Shown: in pieces, positions 1,786 to 55,230 of the stretch
Layout of the letters: every line of letters starts with the position of its first letter
Position numbering within the stretch: the first letter of the stretch is position 1
NCBI GenBank assembly: GCA_964291265.2
Contig: OZ219747.1
Span: forward strand, 1,376,001 to 1,440,000
Source: Alphaproteobacteria bacterium
GTDB lineage: Bacteria > Pseudomonadota > Alphaproteobacteria > SP197
Direction: 5' to 3'
DNA: 64,000 bases
The notes under the pieces: model-generated
Databases searched by the model: none
What the model was told of the DNA's origin: nothing
The model's input: only the letters and a program-made list of their open reading frames with translations
Program-made: the position numbers and the translations under genes

Positions 1786-2583
1786 GATGATCTCTGCGAC
1801 ATGATCGAGGAAGCTCTCGAAGCGCCGGGCGGTGCGCCTGCCCATGGCGGCGATGGTGGCGGTTGAGATCCTGACGGCGAAGAGGTCGCTCATGACCTCG
1901 GCGACGCGCTTCTCGGGAATGAACTGGGCGTGCAACAGGTAGGTCACCCAGGCGGTGATGCGCGGCCCGTACTGGACCGGGGCGCTCACGCCGTGCGGGA
2001 AGGCGGCTGTTGTCACGGCGCCGCAGGCGGCGCAGAGACAGCGATGGGCGCGATGTTCGGTGACCTCGAGGGGCTGCGGCTCGGGCATGTCGAAGACCTG
2101 CCGACAGACGGGTTCTGCGTGACGGTCATCATCCGACAGCGCCGCGCCGCAGCCCTTACAGGCAGACGGAGCATGATCGACGACGTGGTCCGGGTTCTCG
2201 GCCTGCTTCAGGGTGACTCCCTCGTGGCCGCGCTGACCGCCACTGGGCCTGTCGGACTTGCCGCGCTGGCTCCGGGTGCGCTTCTGTCGGTTTCCGCTCT
2301 TCTTCTTCGGACCGTCGCTGGCCGGTGGCTTGGAGCTGGTGGAGCTGTCGAGCGCGGCGCTGCGCTCGAGTGCATCAATCCGTTCGCGCAAGCCGGTGTT
2401 CTCCCGCTCCAGCGCCTCGATCTCCCCGACCAGCGTCTCACTCAGGCGCAACATCCCCTGGCCCCAATCCCGGAGGGCCTTGACGGCAGTCACGGCGAAG
2501 GGGTGTGGACTGAACAGGTCCTGAAGGCCCACGAAGGCCTCGTCCTGGGCGGCGATGTCCTCGCGCCAGCGCGAGACGGTCAC
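1786..2583 (-). pseudogene. tnpC: IS66 transposase TnpC, N-terminal part, interrupted by group II intron
   Basis: Leucine zipper, SSKPPASD, GGQRGHEG, CxxC zinc motifs, RQVFD, PVQYGP; GTG start overlaps the MTase stop (GTGA). Confidence 0.88.
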
Positions 2584-3248
2584 GAACCCTCCCCGGCCTC
2601 GACGGCCATGATCGCCGCCAGCACGGCCAGACGTTCCCCCGGCGGCATGGCCTCGTAGCGCCGCCCCCAGTTGGCCGCCTTGCGCTTGATGCACTGGCGG
2701 GCGGTGAAGTTCCGCCCCGCGTAGCGCGACCAGTGCACCCGGTCGGGAGCAAAGTTGAACCATACCACCTCGGTCCGCACCTGGGCCTGGGTCGTCACCT
2801 GTAGCGCCACCCGGCGCCAGCCCGCCAGAAGATCGTCATAGAGCGCAGACGGGTGGCCCGAGACCATCACCTGACAGGGCAGGCCCTTGAGCAGTTCAAG
2901 GAGCGCAACATGGTCCGCCTCCTCGTACTCGAAGCGGTAGCGCCGCGACGAACGCCGCGTCGCGTGCAGATAGGGCGGATCGCTGTAGACCAGCTCCGGA
3001 CCCAGAAACGGGAACGAAGCCAGGAAGGAGTGAGCACAGCCGTGCACCAACTCCACCGGATAAGCGCACTCAAAGGCCTCAAGCGCACGCTCATCACGGT
3101 CAATCCCGATCGAGCGCACAGACGCAGCCTTGCGCTTCATCAGCGCTCCGCCCCCCAGATGGCTCTCAATGTAGACAGAGTGCGGCGGCATCAGCGCAAT
3201 CAGCGCCTGGCACAAACCCGGCGTCGCCTTCGATCCGAAATACCCCAA
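2580..3248 (-). CDS. Compact Dam-like (D12 class) DNA adenine methyltransferase
   Basis: YFGSK, ESHLGGGA (motif I), GIDRD, LVYSDPPY (motif IV), MVSG, TEVVWFNF. Confidence 0.88.
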   Translation of the reverse strand: MGYFGSKATPGLCQALIALMPPHSVYIESHLGGGALMKRKAASVRSIGIDRDERALEAFECAYPVELVHGCAHSFLASFPFLGPELVYSDPPYLHATRRSSRRYRFEYEEADHVALLELLKGLPCQVMVSGHPSALYDDLLAGWRRVALQVTTQAQVRTEVVWFNFAPDRVHWSRYAGRNFTARQCIKRKAANWGRRYEAMPPGERLAVLAAIMAVEAGEGS

Positions 3249-3276: not shown

Positions 3277-3305
3277 CTCATAGACTCACCGGCCTAGTAA
3301 GTCAA
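3277..3305 (-). promoter_or_regulatory. sigma70-like promoter of element A MTase
   Basis: TTGACT-N17-TATGAG, about 30 bp upstream of the start; contains TAG-N10-CTA. Confidence 0.55.
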
Positions 3306-3980
3306 GACGCGCAGAATCAACAAACCGACGACACCAAAACCGCACCCAACGCAACCAACGTCAACACAGACTCAGACCTGACGAGGTACCTGGGTAGTTA
3401 CGAACATCCTGAAGCTCAGCGAAGAGGTACGGGAAACCAGCGCTGAGGCGCTCGCAAAGGTCTGGTCCTGGCGCGCTAGACGACGTCAGCTCACCGTCCT
3501 GCCGGTACCAGCGAGGAACGCCGCCCCGTCTTCTTCGAACAGCGCCGCCCGGCCAGGGTGGGGGCGTGGAGGAAGTGCTGCCGGACCATCAGTTCGTTCC
3601 GCTGCGCCCGTTCGGCATCCCCGCGCACCGGCACATCCCGCAGCTTATCACCGCCTGGCCGAGCCGGCGGGTCTGTACATGCCGCCGGAGAACGGAAGGC
3701 GCTGGCAATCCCTCGGACTTGCCCTGCGGATGCGAGCGGTGTCAGGGCCGCGACACGGCTTGATGCCCGCTCCCGTGCGCGTCATGCATGTCGAAATGCC
3801 GGCAGGCTTACCCCGCCAGGCGATTTCGGCTAGCATGGCTGCTCTCGGCCACGACCGACTTGCAGCCGTTGGGTCTGGCCCCCGAGGATACGCTTGATCG
3901 GGATGTGCGCTTCCATGGATGGGCGTGTGCACCCTGCGGCATGAGATGTTCAGCACGATTTGTGACCGAGGGGCAGGCCC

Positions 3981-50084: not shown

Positions 50085-51243
50085 TTACAGGCTCTCGGTC
50101 AGTTCCCGCATGGCGGCGCCGAACACCGCGTCGCGCCACGGTTGGAAGCGTTGGCGGGCGGATTCGACGGACTCGTTGTGAAAAAAGAGGAACCCTTCCT
50201 CTGTCAAAGGAACCAGGCTTGAATTCTGCACGTCTTCTTCGTCGCTGTCCCGGAACTCCAGAAACGGCGCGCATATCAGAGTTCCGTTGAACTCCCGTCC
50301 GATACCGTGAACGGCGAAGACAAGTTTCGCGCGACGTCGCCAATACATGTTCAGAGATACCCAGTGCCTGAACTCACCGAGATTGGCACAATATTTCAAC
50401 TGTTCCCTGGCATTCCTGACAATCTGGTGCCGAAAGTAGTAACTTGTGGAGTCGTCCGCCTCCGTCACCGACACCTTGCTGTCCAAATGTATCCTCTGCA
50501 ATGCGCTCCTTATCGCTCCACCATGCTGTTCCAACCAGCAGCGCAACTCGCGGGAGACCTCTTCGGCGACTTCCACAACCGACTCGCGGTCCTTCTTTTC
50601 TGCATCCGCCGTCTTTTGTGCCGCTACCGCCAGCCCGGAGAGAATTTCCGCAACGCTGTTCCGTTCTCTGAGGACAAGTTCAGAGAGTGCAACAGCCTTG
50701 ACGAATTGACGGTTCTGCAGACGGACAACGAGATCGACAAGAGGCTTGAGTGAACCACCATCGGCTGCTTCCAAGGAATCGATGTAAGCTGATCTGTGAT
50801 CCCGCGTGACAACAAACGGAAACAATCCATCCTGCACCAAGACGAGTGATGCCAATGCTCGGGCAACCCGGCCATTTCCGTCCTGGAACGGGTGAATCTG
50901 TGTGAATCGGTGATGCAGCCAGGCGACTTGAATTTCCAGCGGAAGTTCCGACTTCCGGTGAACCTTGTGCATCGAGATCAATCTCTCCATTTCGCTGGAT
51001 ACCTGTTCCGGAGAGCAGTACTCATACTGTATGCCTTCACGAATCGGCGAATTCTTCTGCTTCTTCCAGTCTCCTCGAACGAGGGGCACTTCTACATGCC
51101 GTCCCAGAGAATCAGTTGCTTCGGTGAACTTCTGGCTGCGGAGCAGCGCCCCGTGCAGTTCCTTGACCCAGGACGTCGACAGCATCCGCGTCTGCTTTAC
51201 GAAATCGAATACGCCATCCAGGGCGTCCTTTTGGTCCCGAATC
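50085..51243 (-). pseudogene. Fic-family protein, C-terminal part
   Basis: HPFQDGNGRVAR motif; joins in frame with 53700-54039 when element B is removed. Confidence 0.92.
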
Positions 51244-51487
51244 GTAACTACTCACCCCCTACTGATGACGGATCGTTTTTCCTGACGGGTTCGGATCCGG
51301 CATTTTCTCTTGCCGCCTTCACTTGCTCGCTGCCGATGATCGGATGTGCGTGTTCCGACTGACAAGAAGCGGATCGATCTTCGGCTTCAGCTCCACGTTC
51401 CGGCCTTGTATGACCAGGTTTTGTCCCCGTGATGATGCAATCATCCACAGCGGTTGGCTGCCTTTCCAATCCTCTGGAGATATGCGC

Positions 51488-51516
51488 TTGACATTGTAGG
51501 AGGGGCACTCTACATG
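51488..51516 (+). promoter_or_regulatory. sigma70-like promoter of element B MTase
   Basis: TTGACA-N17-TACATG containing the dyad TGTAG-N10-CTACA. Confidence 0.6.
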
Positions 51517-51547
51517 CTGGCCATCGGGGCGGTTTGCGTCGGAGATA

Positions 51548-52225
51548 TTGATGGCGGCATGGTACGGATCGAAGGCGACGACGGGTCTGAGCCAGGCGAT
51601 CGTCGCGGCCATGCCGCCGCATGACGTGTACATCGAGGCGTTCCTTGGGGGCGGCGCGATCATGAAGCGCAAGCCTCCGGCGCTACGCAGCATCGGCATC
51701 GACCTCAACCGACGGGCGATCGACACCTTCCGCTGTGACTATCCGGTGGAGCTTCACCAAGGCTGCGCCCTGCGTTTTCTCGAGACCTTCGCCTTCCAGG
51801 GCCGCGAGCTGGTCTACTGCGACCCGCCTTACGTGCAGTCGACGCGCCGGTCGCAGCGCCGCTACCGCTTCGACTGCACGGACGATGACCATGTTGCGCT
51901 CCTCGACATCCTGACGTCGCTGCCCTGCCAGGTGATGATCTCCGGCTATCCCTCGCGGCTCTACGACACGCACCTCGCCGGCTGGCGCTCGGCCGAGGTC
52001 CAGGTCAACAACCAGGCCTGCGTTGTCACCGAGAAGCTGTGGTTCAACTTCGCACCGGGCCGGCCGCACTGGCATACGTGTGCGGGCAGGAACTCGATCG
52101 ACCGCCAGCGCATCAAGCGCCTCGCAGAGAGCTGGGCGCGGCGCTACCGGACGATGCCCGAAGGCGAGCGGCTCGCCGTGCTGGCGGCTGTCATGGCGGT
52201 GGAGGCGTCGTCATGGCGAGCGTGA
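51548..52225 (+). CDS. Compact Dam-like (D12 class) DNA adenine methyltransferase
   Basis: WYGSK, EAFLGGGA, GIDLN, LVYCDPPY, MISGY, TEKLWFNF; full-length homolog of 2580-3248. Confidence 0.9.
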   Translation: MMAAWYGSKATTGLSQAIVAAMPPHDVYIEAFLGGGAIMKRKPPALRSIGIDLNRRAIDTFRCDYPVELHQGCALRFLETFAFQGRELVYCDPPYVQSTRRSQRRYRFDCTDDDHVALLDILTSLPCQVMISGYPSRLYDTHLAGWRSAEVQVNNQACVVTEKLWFNFAPGRPHWHTCAGRNSIDRQRIKRLAESWARRYRTMPEGERLAVLAAVMAVEASSWRA

Positions 52226-53691
52226 ACGGCACGTCTGTGCGCCAGGAGGCCGACGTCTTCCAGAAGCAGTTCCAGGATCTCCGCAAGCAGGGCAAGGTCA
52301 ACCAGGAGTGCGAGGAGCTCTTCCGCGGCATGCTGATGCTGATAAAGCTGTTGCTGACCGTGCTCATGGAGAAGATCACACGCAAGACAAGCCGGAACTC
52401 CGGTCTGCCGCCATCGCAGACTGACAAGGACGAGAGCGCGAGGCGCACCGGGAGCCACGGCAAGGGCCCGAAACCGAACCAGCAGACGGGCGACAACCTG
52501 CGCACGACCACCGTCGAGGAGACGATCGTCGTCGATGCCTGCGACGCCTGCGGCGCCGACCTCCACGATGTCGACCCCGTCGACCGGGAGTGCCGCGTCC
52601 TCTACGACATCGTGTTCGAAGTCGTCGAGCGCCGCGTCGAAGCCGAGATCAAGGAATGCCCGAAGTGCCGGACCCGGACCAAGGGCCGGTTCCCAGACAA
52701 CATGCCGGGCCCCCTGCAGTATGGCGTCAGCATCCAGGCCCTCGTCATCAACCTGCTGATCGCCCAGATGCTGTCCCTGCGTCGTGCCGTCTCGCTCGTG
52801 CACGCGATCTCCGGCATCAAGCTCTCCGAGGCGACCTGCCTCGGCTATGTCCGGCGCTTTCACGATGCCCTCGCATCATGGGAGGAGGCCGCCGTGGCCC
52901 ATCTCCTGCAACAACCGGCCCTGCATGTCGACGAGACCGGCTTCCGGGTCGCCGGCAAGACCCAATGGCTCCATGTCGTCACCGACGGCACCCTGACGTG
53001 CAAGTTCCCGCACCCCAAGCGCGGCCGGGAGGCGATCGAAGAGATCGGCATCATCCCGCGCTACAAGGGCGTCCTGATCCACGACTGCTGGGCTGCCTAC
53101 ATGGGCTACGATCAATGCCGCCACCAACTGTGCGGCAGCCATCTCCTGCGCGAACTGACCTTCGTCGTCGAGTCCAACGGCTACCGCTGGGCGCGACTGA
53201 TGAAAAGCCTGCTGCGCGAGGTCTCCCGCAGGGTCAACAAGAGCGCATCCAAGACCTTGAACGAGGCCGACCGCCGGGCCGTGCGCAAGCGCTACCGCAC
53301 CATCCTCACCCAGGGCGCCAGGGAACTGCCCGACATCCCGCCACGGACGAAAGGAAAACGGGGACGCATCGCAAAGTCCGACGCGCACAACCTGCATGAA
53401 CGTCTCGTGAAACACGAGAAGTCCGTCCTGCGCTTCATGAAGGACCCCAATGTCAGTTTCACAAATAATACCGGAGAGCAGAAGATCAGGATGACAAAGG
53501 TCAAGATCAAGGTGTCCGGATGTTTCCGTACCATGCCCCACGCCAAAGCATGGTGCCGCGGCTCAAGCTACCTCACCACCATGGACGCACTCGGCTACAA
53601 CCCTCACGTCGCCATCCACATCGCCCTCGACGGAAAGGCCGTAGACATCCTCAACCAGCACTACGGACAACCAGACCCTAACAAGGGGTGA
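52213..53691 (+). CDS. tnpC: IS66 transposase TnpC, intact
   Basis: NSGLPPSQ, CxxC pairs, HVDETG, IHDCW, CGSHLLREL, FTNNTGE, KVSGCFR; GGAGG RBS inside the MTase 3' end. Confidence 0.94.
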   Translation: MASVNGTSVRQEADVFQKQFQDLRKQGKVNQECEELFRGMLMLIKLLLTVLMEKITRKTSRNSGLPPSQTDKDESARRTGSHGKGPKPNQQTGDNLRTTTVEETIVVDACDACGADLHDVDPVDRECRVLYDIVFEVVERRVEAEIKECPKCRTRTKGRFPDNMPGPLQYGVSIQALVINLLIAQMLSLRRAVSLVHAISGIKLSEATCLGYVRRFHDALASWEEAAVAHLLQQPALHVDETGFRVAGKTQWLHVVTDGTLTCKFPHPKRGREAIEEIGIIPRYKGVLIHDCWAAYMGYDQCRHQLCGSHLLRELTFVVESNGYRWARLMKSLLREVSRRVNKSASKTLNEADRRAVRKRYRTILTQGARELPDIPPRTKGKRGRIAKSDAHNLHERLVKHEKSVLRFMKDPNVSFTNNTGEQKIRMTKVKIKVSGCFRTMPHAKAWCRGSSYLTTMDALGYNPHVAIHIALDGKAVDILNQHYGQPDPNKG

Positions 53692-53699
53692 GTAGTTAC

Positions 53700-54039
53700 C
53701 CCGAATCAACTGCAAGACAAATTCACGCGGTCGATTCGTGGTTCCGTGGGCAAGAAGTTCGGCTCGGAAACCCTGTTCGATCAAGGTTTGCGTGACGCCG
53801 CGATCGATGTCGTAGAGACCTTCGATGATCCCAGTCTCGATCGCCCATTCGCGGCTCAGTTTCTCGGTGAAATCGGCAAGCATCGGCGTCCCCCGAAGCC
53901 GGTCTCGCTGTTCTTGCCAGACAGCCTTGATGCCGGACATTTCCGCGCTCGCCATGGCCTTGATGTCGTCTGCATTTTCCGAATCGATGTCCTGAATTCC
54001 CGTGGCGGGATTCCAGATGTGCTTGATTACCAACGTCAT
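53700..54039 (-). pseudogene. Fic-family protein, N-terminal part
   Basis: REWAIETGIIEGLY; reads LQLIR|DQKDALD across the excised IS. Confidence 0.88.
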
Positions 54040-54199
54040 GAATTCTCTCTTGCTGAATGTCCCGCCCTGTGTTGAAACTCGTCTGAGAGTGCCGCTTCGT
54101 GATGGTAGGTTACGCTGCGTCCTTGATCTGGTCAAGCTTGCAGCTCTGACGATGCGAAGTCAGAGCCTTTTTGAGCGGAGGCATTTGGCATCTACACAT

Positions 54200-54302
54200 C
54201 CCCCTACTGAGGACGAATCGTTTTTCCTGACGGGTTCGGATCCGGCATTTTCTCTTGCCGCCTTCACTTGCTCGCTTCCGATGACCGGATGTGCGTGTTC
54301 CG
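54200..54302 (+). repeat. Relic of the left-end region of element B
   Basis: Near-identical to 51255-51357; terminal IR missing; ends at intron copy 3. Confidence 0.85.
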
Positions 54303-55230
54303 GTGTGCCAACTGGCAGATGGTATGGGGTGAAAGTCCCCTGTAACGAAGGAGTAGCCAAACCACGTTTCTCCGCGAGCCGTGCGTCGGTTCCCGCGAGG
54401 GGGCAGGCGAAGCGTCGGTAGCGGTACGGATGGGCAGGGCTAATGAGCACCGAAAAGACGACAATTCGGGGTGCCGAGGATTTCAGATCGGTCGAAGGCA
54501 ACATCGCAGGCATCGCTATGGTGAGATGTCGGCGAGCTCCGCGGTGTCAGAAAACCCATGCACGTCCGTACGCCTTCTGTTGGGACCCTGGGAGGTCTTC
54601 AAACTGTCCCGCCTGTCGTGGCGGGACCGTGTAGGGAAAGGAGAAAGCCGAAGCCTATGATGCACGGTTTGAAGAAGTCGGATGGGGTCGTAGGGTGTGC
54701 TGGGCAGCGCCCAAATCAGGTGGGTTCAAGTCCCACTGGCGCTCGGGTAAGGGGCGCCATATCCAAAAGCGGGGGTCATTCCTCGCTGGCCGGGGTGAGC
54801 GACTTCCTGGGCTTCACGCACTTCTGCACGGAGACCCGGAGAGGACGCTTCAGGCTTGGTCGCAAGCCGGTCGCAAAACGGGTCACAAGGACCCTGGCGC
54901 GCATCGAGGAGGTGCTTCGCAATCGACGGCATCACGACATATGGGAGGTCGGCATGTGGCTTGGGCGAGTTGTCAATGGCTGGTCCAACTACTTCGCCGT
55001 CCCGGGGTCGACCCGATGGCTGCGCACGTTCCGCCAAAGGCTGCAACGCCTGTGGCTGCGAGCGATCCGCCGCCGCTCCCAGCGCCACCGTTTTGACTGG
55101 AAGCGATTGGAGCGAATGACCGAGCTTCTTTGGCCGCGCGCCTCCATCCGCCACCCATGGCCGGACCAGCGGTTTACCGTCAAGCACCCGAGGTAGGAGC
55201 CGGATGGATTAGCGTCCAAGTCCGGATCTG
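54303..55230 (+). mobile_element. Group II intron copy 3, deleted and 3'-truncated after DV
   Basis: GTGTG start, 5' domains match 22930 onward; RT C-terminus 54801-55196 nearly identical to 1318-1713; empty site TGTTCCG^ACTGAC at 51357/51358. Confidence 0.9.
54695..54800 (+). mobile_element. 5' fragment of a nested second group II intron
   Basis: New GTGTGC start directly after AAGTCGGATGGGGTCGTAGG, followed by GTGGG-TTCAAGT-CCCAC hairpin. Confidence 0.7.

Follow-up and report, generated by a model that had tools for sequence, protein, structure and literature searches.

A Upf31-family Dam-fold protein as a probable self-repressor ahead of the transposase gene in IS66 insertion sequences

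Transposase genes are known to be controlled by host Dam methylation at the promoters of IS10, IS50 and IS903, by InsA of IS1 and by OrfA of IS2 and IS3, and some DNA methyltransferases, such as M.SsoII and M.EcoRII, repress their own synthesis. The subject here is element B, an IS66 insertion sequence of 2,456 bp at positions 51244–53699 of a 64,000-nucleotide stretch of an alphaproteobacterial genome (assembly GCA_964291265.2, contig OZ219747.1, positions 1,376,001 to 1,440,000, forward strand; 'the window', to which coordinates refer unless another contig or locus is named). Its two open reading frames (ORFs) encode a protein with the fold of a Dam-type methyltransferase and a TnpC transposase, and our analysis indicates that the first is probably a self-repressor, portable between elements, by which the downstream transposase gene is throttled.

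The closest described counterpart of this protein is Upf31 of the IncP-1beta plasmids pBP136 and R751 (Elg et al. 2025, PMC11997246). The available sections of that paper report that pBP136 Upf31 gave no methylation by restriction digest or by SMRT (single-molecule, real-time) sequencing, the latter in a methylase-free strain with an expression vector that carried no pBP136, and that it lowers the activity of its own promoter from 4.76 to 0.09 XylE units, or about 50-fold. Repression requires the C-terminal domain and is abolished by each of the changes Y180A, F185A and W198A, whilst an inverted repeat in the promoter is, according to the authors, the likely operator. Homologues were found only on plasmids, in a search of a plasmid database, and insertion sequences are never mentioned in these sections (PMC11997246).

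Within the IS66 family, the ISBst12 group is described, in the section of the source available, as having a single ORF, tnpC (PMC12898284). Insertion sequences with an extra gene between their ends have been termed transporter insertion sequences (tIS); the available portion of the TnCentral preprint restricts them to the IS1595 and IS66 families, and treats IS66 as known for passenger genes. No description of the present cassette in insertion sequences was found in the literature searched, which did not take in ISfinder, REBASE or subscription reviews. The sequence-only reading of the window that preceded this analysis had missed the predicted operator, the kinship with Upf31 and the plasmid and phage relatives.

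The Upf31-family gene, its promoter and its transposase

Element B is ordered promoter, Upf31-like gene, overlapping tnpC, between 15-bp terminal inverted repeats of the GTAA... type that are complementary at 15/15 positions (left, plus strand, 51244–51258; right, minus strand, 53685–53699). The 8-bp target duplication CCCGAATC flanks it at 51236–51243 and 53700–53707. A complete element of this composition had been proposed from the sequence alone, and its ends, duplication and ORFs were all recovered. The proposed lack of a restriction partner also held: no cognate restriction endonuclease gene lies beside the methyltransferase-like gene in element B, where a third gene has no room between the ends (shadow ORFs lay outside the library scans). 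In the 4.83-Mb host genome the family has 21 left ends and 20 right ends, with 15 left/right pairs that show matching 8-bp duplications; because so many copies have matching ends and duplications, the arrangement is not a chance one. Both ORFs are intact in 10 of the 16 two-ended copies, other insertions lie in 6 of the 16, and three copies are 100% identical.

The Upf31-like gene (51551–52225, plus strand) encodes 224 residues from the ATG that its homologues use, or 225 from a TTG at 51548, and matches PF02086 (E 2e-8). Motif I occupies residues 29–36 and DPPY residues 91–94. The interval between them is about 62 residues, against about 153 in DpnM, and the target-recognition domain is missing, as the earlier reading had said; the basic helical C-terminal tail that it described is likewise present (9 K/R against 5 D/E, two predicted helices). 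A structure model built from a 98-row alignment (predicted local distance difference test score 87.7) consists of a methyltransferase core and the two C-terminal helices, and its best Foldseek match is E. coli Dam (E 2e-7, template modelling score 0.53–0.55). The PADLOC Type II methyltransferase model matches the protein with E 2e-26, and the TIGR00571 score of 38.8 is far under the cut-off of 114.85. Alignment to pBP136 Upf31 gives 42% identity over 220 residues (E 9e-62), the tail included, and one plasmid match carries the annotation Upf31.0. By this full-length homology the protein is assigned to the Upf31 family, and the coding region for its two-helix basic C-terminal domain (52091–52225, plus strand) matches the Upf31 domain needed for repression, with W195 at the position of W198. 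Among the 98 aligned proteins, down to 35% identity, D91, P92 and P93 never vary and 94 have kept Y94, and motif I and the acid that binds S-adenosylmethionine are also retained. Among 270 database homologues the DPPY motif is unbroken in 253, with C, H or M in place of the tyrosine in 11 and no motif in 6, mostly fragments or frameshifted sequences.

Upstream of the gene, on the plus strand, lie a predicted –35 box TTGACA (51488–51493) and, 17 nucleotides past it, a predicted –10 box TACATG (51511–51516), a promoter that a simple promoter scan did not list. The predicted operator, the dyad TGTAG-N10-CTACA (51495–51514, plus strand), lies between the boxes and over the second, and contains the only TAG-N10-CTA site in element B. 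The sequence TTGAC occurs upstream in 103 of 108 distinct rows of the insertion-sequence clade and served as the anchor for aligning 97 distinct promoters of that clade and 29 from plasmids and phages. Conservation in the 97 is concentrated in the two half-sites (T10 in 88, A11 in 89, G12 in 87; C23 in 84, T24 in 89, A25 in 87), the ten bases between them being nearly free, and the left half-site, TAG, is not part of either promoter box. The pair 9/26 co-varies (47 A-T, 16 G-C), with 66 of 97 promoters paired against a shuffle mean of 42.6, although kinship among the sequences means that shuffle values overstate the contrast. Of the 48 TAG-N10-CTA sites in the host genome, 28 follow TTGAC, and 25 of these 28 are within 200 nucleotides of a match to the gene.

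In the plasmid and phage promoters position 11 is C in 28 of 29 and position 24 is G in 26, giving the dyad TCG-N10-CGA; judged from these alignments, the shift from TAG to TCG is a matched change on both sides, and T10/A25 is a pair common to both operator types. Plasmid pBP136 holds 13 exact copies of CATCG-N10-CGATG, the IncP-1beta repeat, which PMC11997246 puts forward as the probable operator of Upf31. Proteins with the N-terminal motif G-S-K are accompanied by TAG in 91 cases, TCG in 0 and neither in 25, whilst those with G-G-K have TAG in 0, TCG in 18, YCG in 2 and none of these in 14, a match of operator to protein type that counts as one event because it is a contrast between two clades. 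A TAG-type relative in a phage (L163:3730–4920; also L162, L164 and L168) is flanked by several operator-like dyads and longer inverted repeat arrays; the repeats of these phage relatives resemble the IncP-1beta clusters, and the group is the nearest outgroup of the insertion-sequence clade. Of 67 metagenome promoters, 63 end the –10 box with T, as against only 2 of the 21 from the mostly alphaproteobacterial genome set, and element B, too, lacks it. Alphaproteobacterial promoters without –7T are described in the accessible part of PMC7703639. The loss of this T matches the pattern of the class and therefore fits a working promoter.

The second ORF (52213–53691, plus strand) encodes an intact TnpC of 492 residues, which scores 144.9 bits against PF03050 (cut-off 23.1) and 251.9 bits against NF033517 (cut-off 180); D240, D291 and E422 are presumably its catalytic residues. 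With a TnpC of the DDE type, GTAA ends and an 8-bp duplication, element B belongs to IS66. The genes tnpA and tnpB are absent, the two genes filling the element, and no TnpB match was found in loci with this type of TnpC. The start of tnpC overlaps the upstream gene by 13 nucleotides and lies 7 nucleotides past a Shine-Dalgarno-like GGAGG (52201–52205, plus strand) within the last codons of that gene (V-E-A). At classical TnpC junctions a 4-nucleotide stop-start overlap is the rule (15 of 16).

Transposase partners and copies without a working gene

One search of the protein family gave 3,568 matches, with 1,187 representatives at E ≤ 1e-30. Relatives outside insertion sequences are less than 60% identical and lie on plasmids, of which 130 of 189 records are conjugative, and in phages. 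Partners were surveyed at 160 loci, the best 80 from each of two sets, one of at least 552 confirmed loci in genomes and one of at least 553 in metagenomes; the 80 from genomes represent only 24 of these, and 76 of the 80 are alphaproteobacterial. A transposase gene follows on the same strand at 149 of these 160 loci; six have too little DNA and five have none. The partners are B-type TnpC (80, some partial), classical TnpC (57), other IS66 transposases (4), and IS701-like (5), IS4 (2) and ISKra4 (1) transposases, the IS4 and ISKra4 matches being above the NCBIfam cut-offs and the IS701-like ones just under. The module is not peculiar to IS66: the cassette also precedes IS701-like, IS4 and ISKra4 transposases. 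IS66-type ends enclose the gene at 97 of the 160 loci, 48 of them with an 8-bp duplication; among the non-IS66 partners, clear enclosing ends were seen only at one IS4 locus, L106 (25/25). No IS66 transposase match lay beside the gene at any of 52 viral loci. In 50 of 53 genome loci with a classical TnpC, tnpB lies downstream on the opposite strand, and at L002:3888–7083, L004:3894–7524 and L029:3816–7112 the Upf31-like gene and tnpC share one strand with tnpA-tnpB inverted at the right end.

A quickly built tree places the insertion-sequence proteins together as one clade among the plasmid and phage relatives (80 of 116 rows; Shimodaira–Hasegawa-like approximate likelihood-ratio support 99). 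Within it, a single clade was rejected for the proteins with B-type partners and for those with non-IS66 partners, but not for those with classical partners. A crude ratio of non-synonymous to synonymous substitution (dN/dS) of 0.17–0.41 in 10 pairs indicates purifying selection on the gene within insertion sequences. Together with the transposase at 149 of 160 loci and the presence of more than two partner lineages, this bears out the earlier contention that selection rather than chance maintains the pairing.

Element A, at the other end of the window, has the layout of element B, with a methyltransferase-like protein 63% identical and a TnpC only 30% identical to those of B. All its features are on the minus strand: the left inverted repeat (3388–3401), the –35 box and predicted operator, again TAG-N10-CTA (3279–3305), the Upf31-family gene for a protein of 222 residues (2580–3248), which joins tnpC by a GTGA overlap, and the 5' part of a tnpC of a second IS66 lineage (1786–2583). 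The layout, the homologous methyltransferase and the different TnpC were as described from the sequence alone, but the element is not complete in the window: its tnpC is interrupted by a group II intron at 1785/1786 and its right end lies outside. No target duplication was seen at its flanks. The intron (1–1785) is antisense to tnpC and has an intact-looking reverse transcriptase gene (268–1713).

At the genus level the gene is patchy, being found in 5 of 22 genomes, but it is kept at 13/13 full-length TnpC loci of 67–74% identity in three same-genus genomes (one gene partial), loci that may overlap those of the 80-locus genome set. At 19 more distant TnpC loci (31–59% identical, several fragmentary) no Upf31-like gene was found, and at two of them a DruA-like gene occupies the same overlapping slot: L221:133–1011 and L223:73–951 are 2.4-kb IS66 elements in which a DruA-like gene (PF14236) overlaps and precedes tnpC. 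A DruA-transposase fusion ORF is also inserted near locus L001. In two genomes an intact Upf31-like gene with its promoter and operator adjoins the same transporter gene with no transposase (L028:3992–4660, L031:4001–4666), a copy that is possibly fixed and domesticated.

Some lineages have lost the working gene and have nonetheless spread. Of seven copies of the element A family examined, one further internally deleted copy being left out, four share a single nonsense change at codon 134, leaving 133 codons. Each of these four is flanked by a duplication of its own, 8 or 9 bp long, a stretch of 1,600 nucleotides is identical in two of them, and three hold the only 513-residue TnpC ORFs; the three copies with an intact gene have an altered or interrupted tnpC and no duplication. 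The nonsense-bearing copies keep the operator and could therefore still be repressed in trans. In a genome of another family, G577, a sibling of element B (TnpC 86–88% identical) has 59 TnpC matches at E ≤ 1e-100, whilst only 2 of 29 matches to the gene are full length. Most of the gene is gone at all 30 of the sibling loci examined. The 20 G577 copies with both ends found all have a stop at codon 5, with an 8-bp duplication in 19 and a 492-residue TnpC in 16; in all 17 copies whose promoter was found the operator half-site CTA has become CTC, and median identity among 13 copies is 98.3%. The G577 copies have also lost the first A of the –10 box and must therefore use another promoter. At one G577 locus (L256:1090–1420) foreign DNA stands in place of the gene body and contains TTGACC...CATGCT, a promoter-like sequence that has no dyad and is a candidate for the substitute promoter. 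Since both the nonsense-bearing A copies and the gene-deleted G577 copies spread, an element can jump without the gene in cis. In this one case, G577, gene loss accompanied operator loss and a higher copy number than in the gene-keeping genomes, namely the host (23 TnpC matches at the looser cut-off of E ≤ 1e-60) and G309 (13).

Repression, methylation or linkage

In the mechanism that would make the Upf31-family protein a self-repressor, a single sigma-70 promoter at 51488–51516 would transcribe both genes, and tnpC would be translated from the ribosome site within the last codons of the gene upstream. The protein would pair through its C-terminal helices, bind both halves of TAG-N10-CTA and block RNA polymerase; if both genes are indeed on one transcript, self-repression also represses tnpC. 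Since all copies share the operator, repressor from every copy would damp every copy, and transposase would be expected to start high in a newly entered cell and to fall as copy number rises. Because the promoter, operator and gene form a self-contained cassette, it would have been swapped onto unrelated transposases. Methyl transfer is not required by such a brake. The earlier reading had proposed that the element controls transposition by methylating itself; control is still the best interpretation, but methylation as its means is disfavoured by the lack of methylation by Upf31, its action as an autorepressor and the operator-like palindrome.

Several observations weigh against this self-repressor, besides the relatedness of the aligned promoters. 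The right half of the dyad doubles as the beginning of the –10 box, an overlap that explains part of the conservation of that half. The exact dyad is absent from all four IS701-like promoters. The 62 B-type junctions, for which start calling was crude, yielded just 10 with a 4-nucleotide overlap and 11 with a Shine-Dalgarno-like word. Of the aromatic residues critical for repression by Upf31, Y180 corresponds to C177 and F185 to S182 in the B protein, only the tryptophan being kept, and the B protein may therefore be a weak repressor. The element A protein keeps all three, and across the 98 aligned proteins the phenylalanine is kept in 66 and the tryptophan in 87. A protein that did no more than bind DNA would have no plain need for DPPY to be so conserved. 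A single genome supplies the copy-number contrast, and intact genes elsewhere in each genome could be acting in trans on the copies that lack one.

The conservation of DPPY leads to the strongest rival, which we regard as unlikely: a methylation switch, in which the protein binds the dyad and methylates an adenine there, for example the conserved –10 A and its mirror; methylation would then keep the promoter silent, with a short active spell after replication or on arrival in a new cell. The catalytic tetrad, motif I and the residue that binds the methyl donor are kept, the best structural match is Dam, and the T10/A25 pair persists through the change of operator type. About four of the long sites are expected by calculation in the 4.6 Mb of E. 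coli, too few for motif finding, and the 13 pBP136 repeats were missing from the published SMRT test because the expression vector carried no pBP136. What probability the switch retains comes from the strong conservation of the catalytic motif and from the lack of the plasmid repeats in that test. However, methylation by Upf31 was negative by two methods, and a version of the switch reading a 6-bp site (about 1,100 expected) would have shown in SMRT. The target-recognition domain is missing, the catalytic tyrosine is replaced by C, H or M in some homologues, and A25 is also a promoter base. A broader conjecture, to be held just as tentatively, is that methyltransferases of mobile elements, having shed the target-recognition domain, turned into dimeric repressor-methylases, which recognise a split palindrome of 16–20 bp and mark their own –10 adenine, that at least four insertion sequence families took up the cassette as a self-encoded epigenetic timer and copy-number sensor for transposase, and that the dropout lineages are runaway cheaters. 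If true, it would explain the long-unexplained IncP-1beta repeats as methylation targets invisible to the published SMRT test.

Less likely again is that the gene is a hitch-hiker. The transposases would have gained a strong promoter and ribosome site, the gene would regulate only itself and persist by linkage, and the upstream position would be a general cargo slot. The DruA-like gene in that slot at two of the 19 distant TnpC loci, the others having no Upf31-like gene, fits such a slot, as do the reputation of IS66 for passenger genes and the fact that gene loss does not stop spread. Against this, purifying selection acts on the gene in insertion sequences, its operator is kept and co-varies, and it is retained at every full-length TnpC locus of the same-genus set. 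The restriction shield of the earlier reading, in which an active adenine methyltransferase of low specificity protects the element or its carrier DNA, is very unlikely: the intact catalytic motifs, the missing recognition domain (which could mean loose specificity), the conjugative plasmid and phage relatives and the PADLOC match speak for it, but induced Upf31 in a methylase-free strain gave no SMRT signal, where broad methylation would give one, tight self-repression is what would be expected of a regulator, an insertion sequence meets no restriction when it moves inside a genome, and copies with a dead or deleted gene still transposed.

If the self-repressor reading is true, it describes a new form of self-limitation by insertion sequences, through a detachable promoter-operator-repressor cassette with a methyltransferase fold that is traded between unrelated transposases, and thousands of 'DNA adenine methylase' annotations (the 3,568 homologues of one search) would be corrected. 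The matched natural specificities (TAG with G-S-K, TCG with G-G-K) offer a way to learn how a Dam fold without a recognition domain reads DNA, whilst in the lineages that have lost the gene naturally, what self-restraint costs a transposon and what it brings could be tested directly.

Surroundings and comparison with described systems

Insertion of element B broke a minus-strand Fic-domain gene in two; its 3' part lies at 50085–51243 (PF02661, E 1e-18) and its 5' part to the right of 53700. A terminator-like hairpin in the left end of the element (51286–51299, plus strand; one found against 0.4 expected, a weak excess) could insulate it against read-through. A left-end remnant of the B family follows at 54192–54302 (plus strand), cut at element position 114 by a group II intron (54303–55230) that has a large internal deletion and an ORF reduced to the maturase end. 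Group II introns have inserted three times at this spot, position 113–114, in B-family left ends (the window remnant, C2:1454883 and C1:226419), and the intron reverse transcriptase has 16 near-full-length copies in the genome at more than 80% identity. At C1:104609–109528 an element B lies in inverted orientation inside the tnpC of another B copy.

Among IS66 elements, B resembles the ISBst12 group in a TnpC above the NF033517 cut-off, GTAA-type ends, an 8-bp duplication and the lack of tnpA and tnpB. Its ends resemble those of ISDge4, and its TnpC is 32–36% identical to those of single-ORF elements with similar ends, including ISGka4 and ISGst1 (32–33%), a comparison made without a tree against ISfinder references. 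It differs in having two ORFs and a length of 2.46 kb against about 1.4–1.7 kb in cargo-free relatives. Element B falls outside the single-ORF definition of ISBst12 and is also not a classical three-gene IS66. Like a tIS, it holds an extra gene between its ends. Passenger genes of IS66 are described as lying downstream of tnpC; the extra gene of B lies upstream, shares the predicted promoter of the transposase and looks regulatory, and its cassette also precedes IS4, IS701-like and ISKra4 transposases, beyond the two families named for tIS.

With the Dam-type D12 alpha-class methyltransferases (E. coli Dam, T4 Dam, DpnM) the B protein shares a Rossmann-type fold and the order of motif I before DPPY, but it lacks about 90 residues of target-recognition domain and has a two-helix tail in addition. 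With Upf31 it shares a length of 224 residues, the motif order and the C-terminal domain, and their promoters have the same design (TTGACA, a dyad with a 10-base gap, –10). The dyad is TAG-N10-CTA rather than TCG-N10-CGA, there is one operator per element rather than the clusters of pBP136, and the gene lies within an insertion sequence, coupled to a transposase and with no KorB partner in the element. The known controls of transposase genes and the self-repressing methyltransferases resemble the predicted cassette in negative control of transposase transcription and in repression by a methyltransferase of its own promoter, respectively. Element B differs from them in that its putative regulator is encoded by the element, has a methyltransferase fold, is separate from the transposase and appears to be portable between families.

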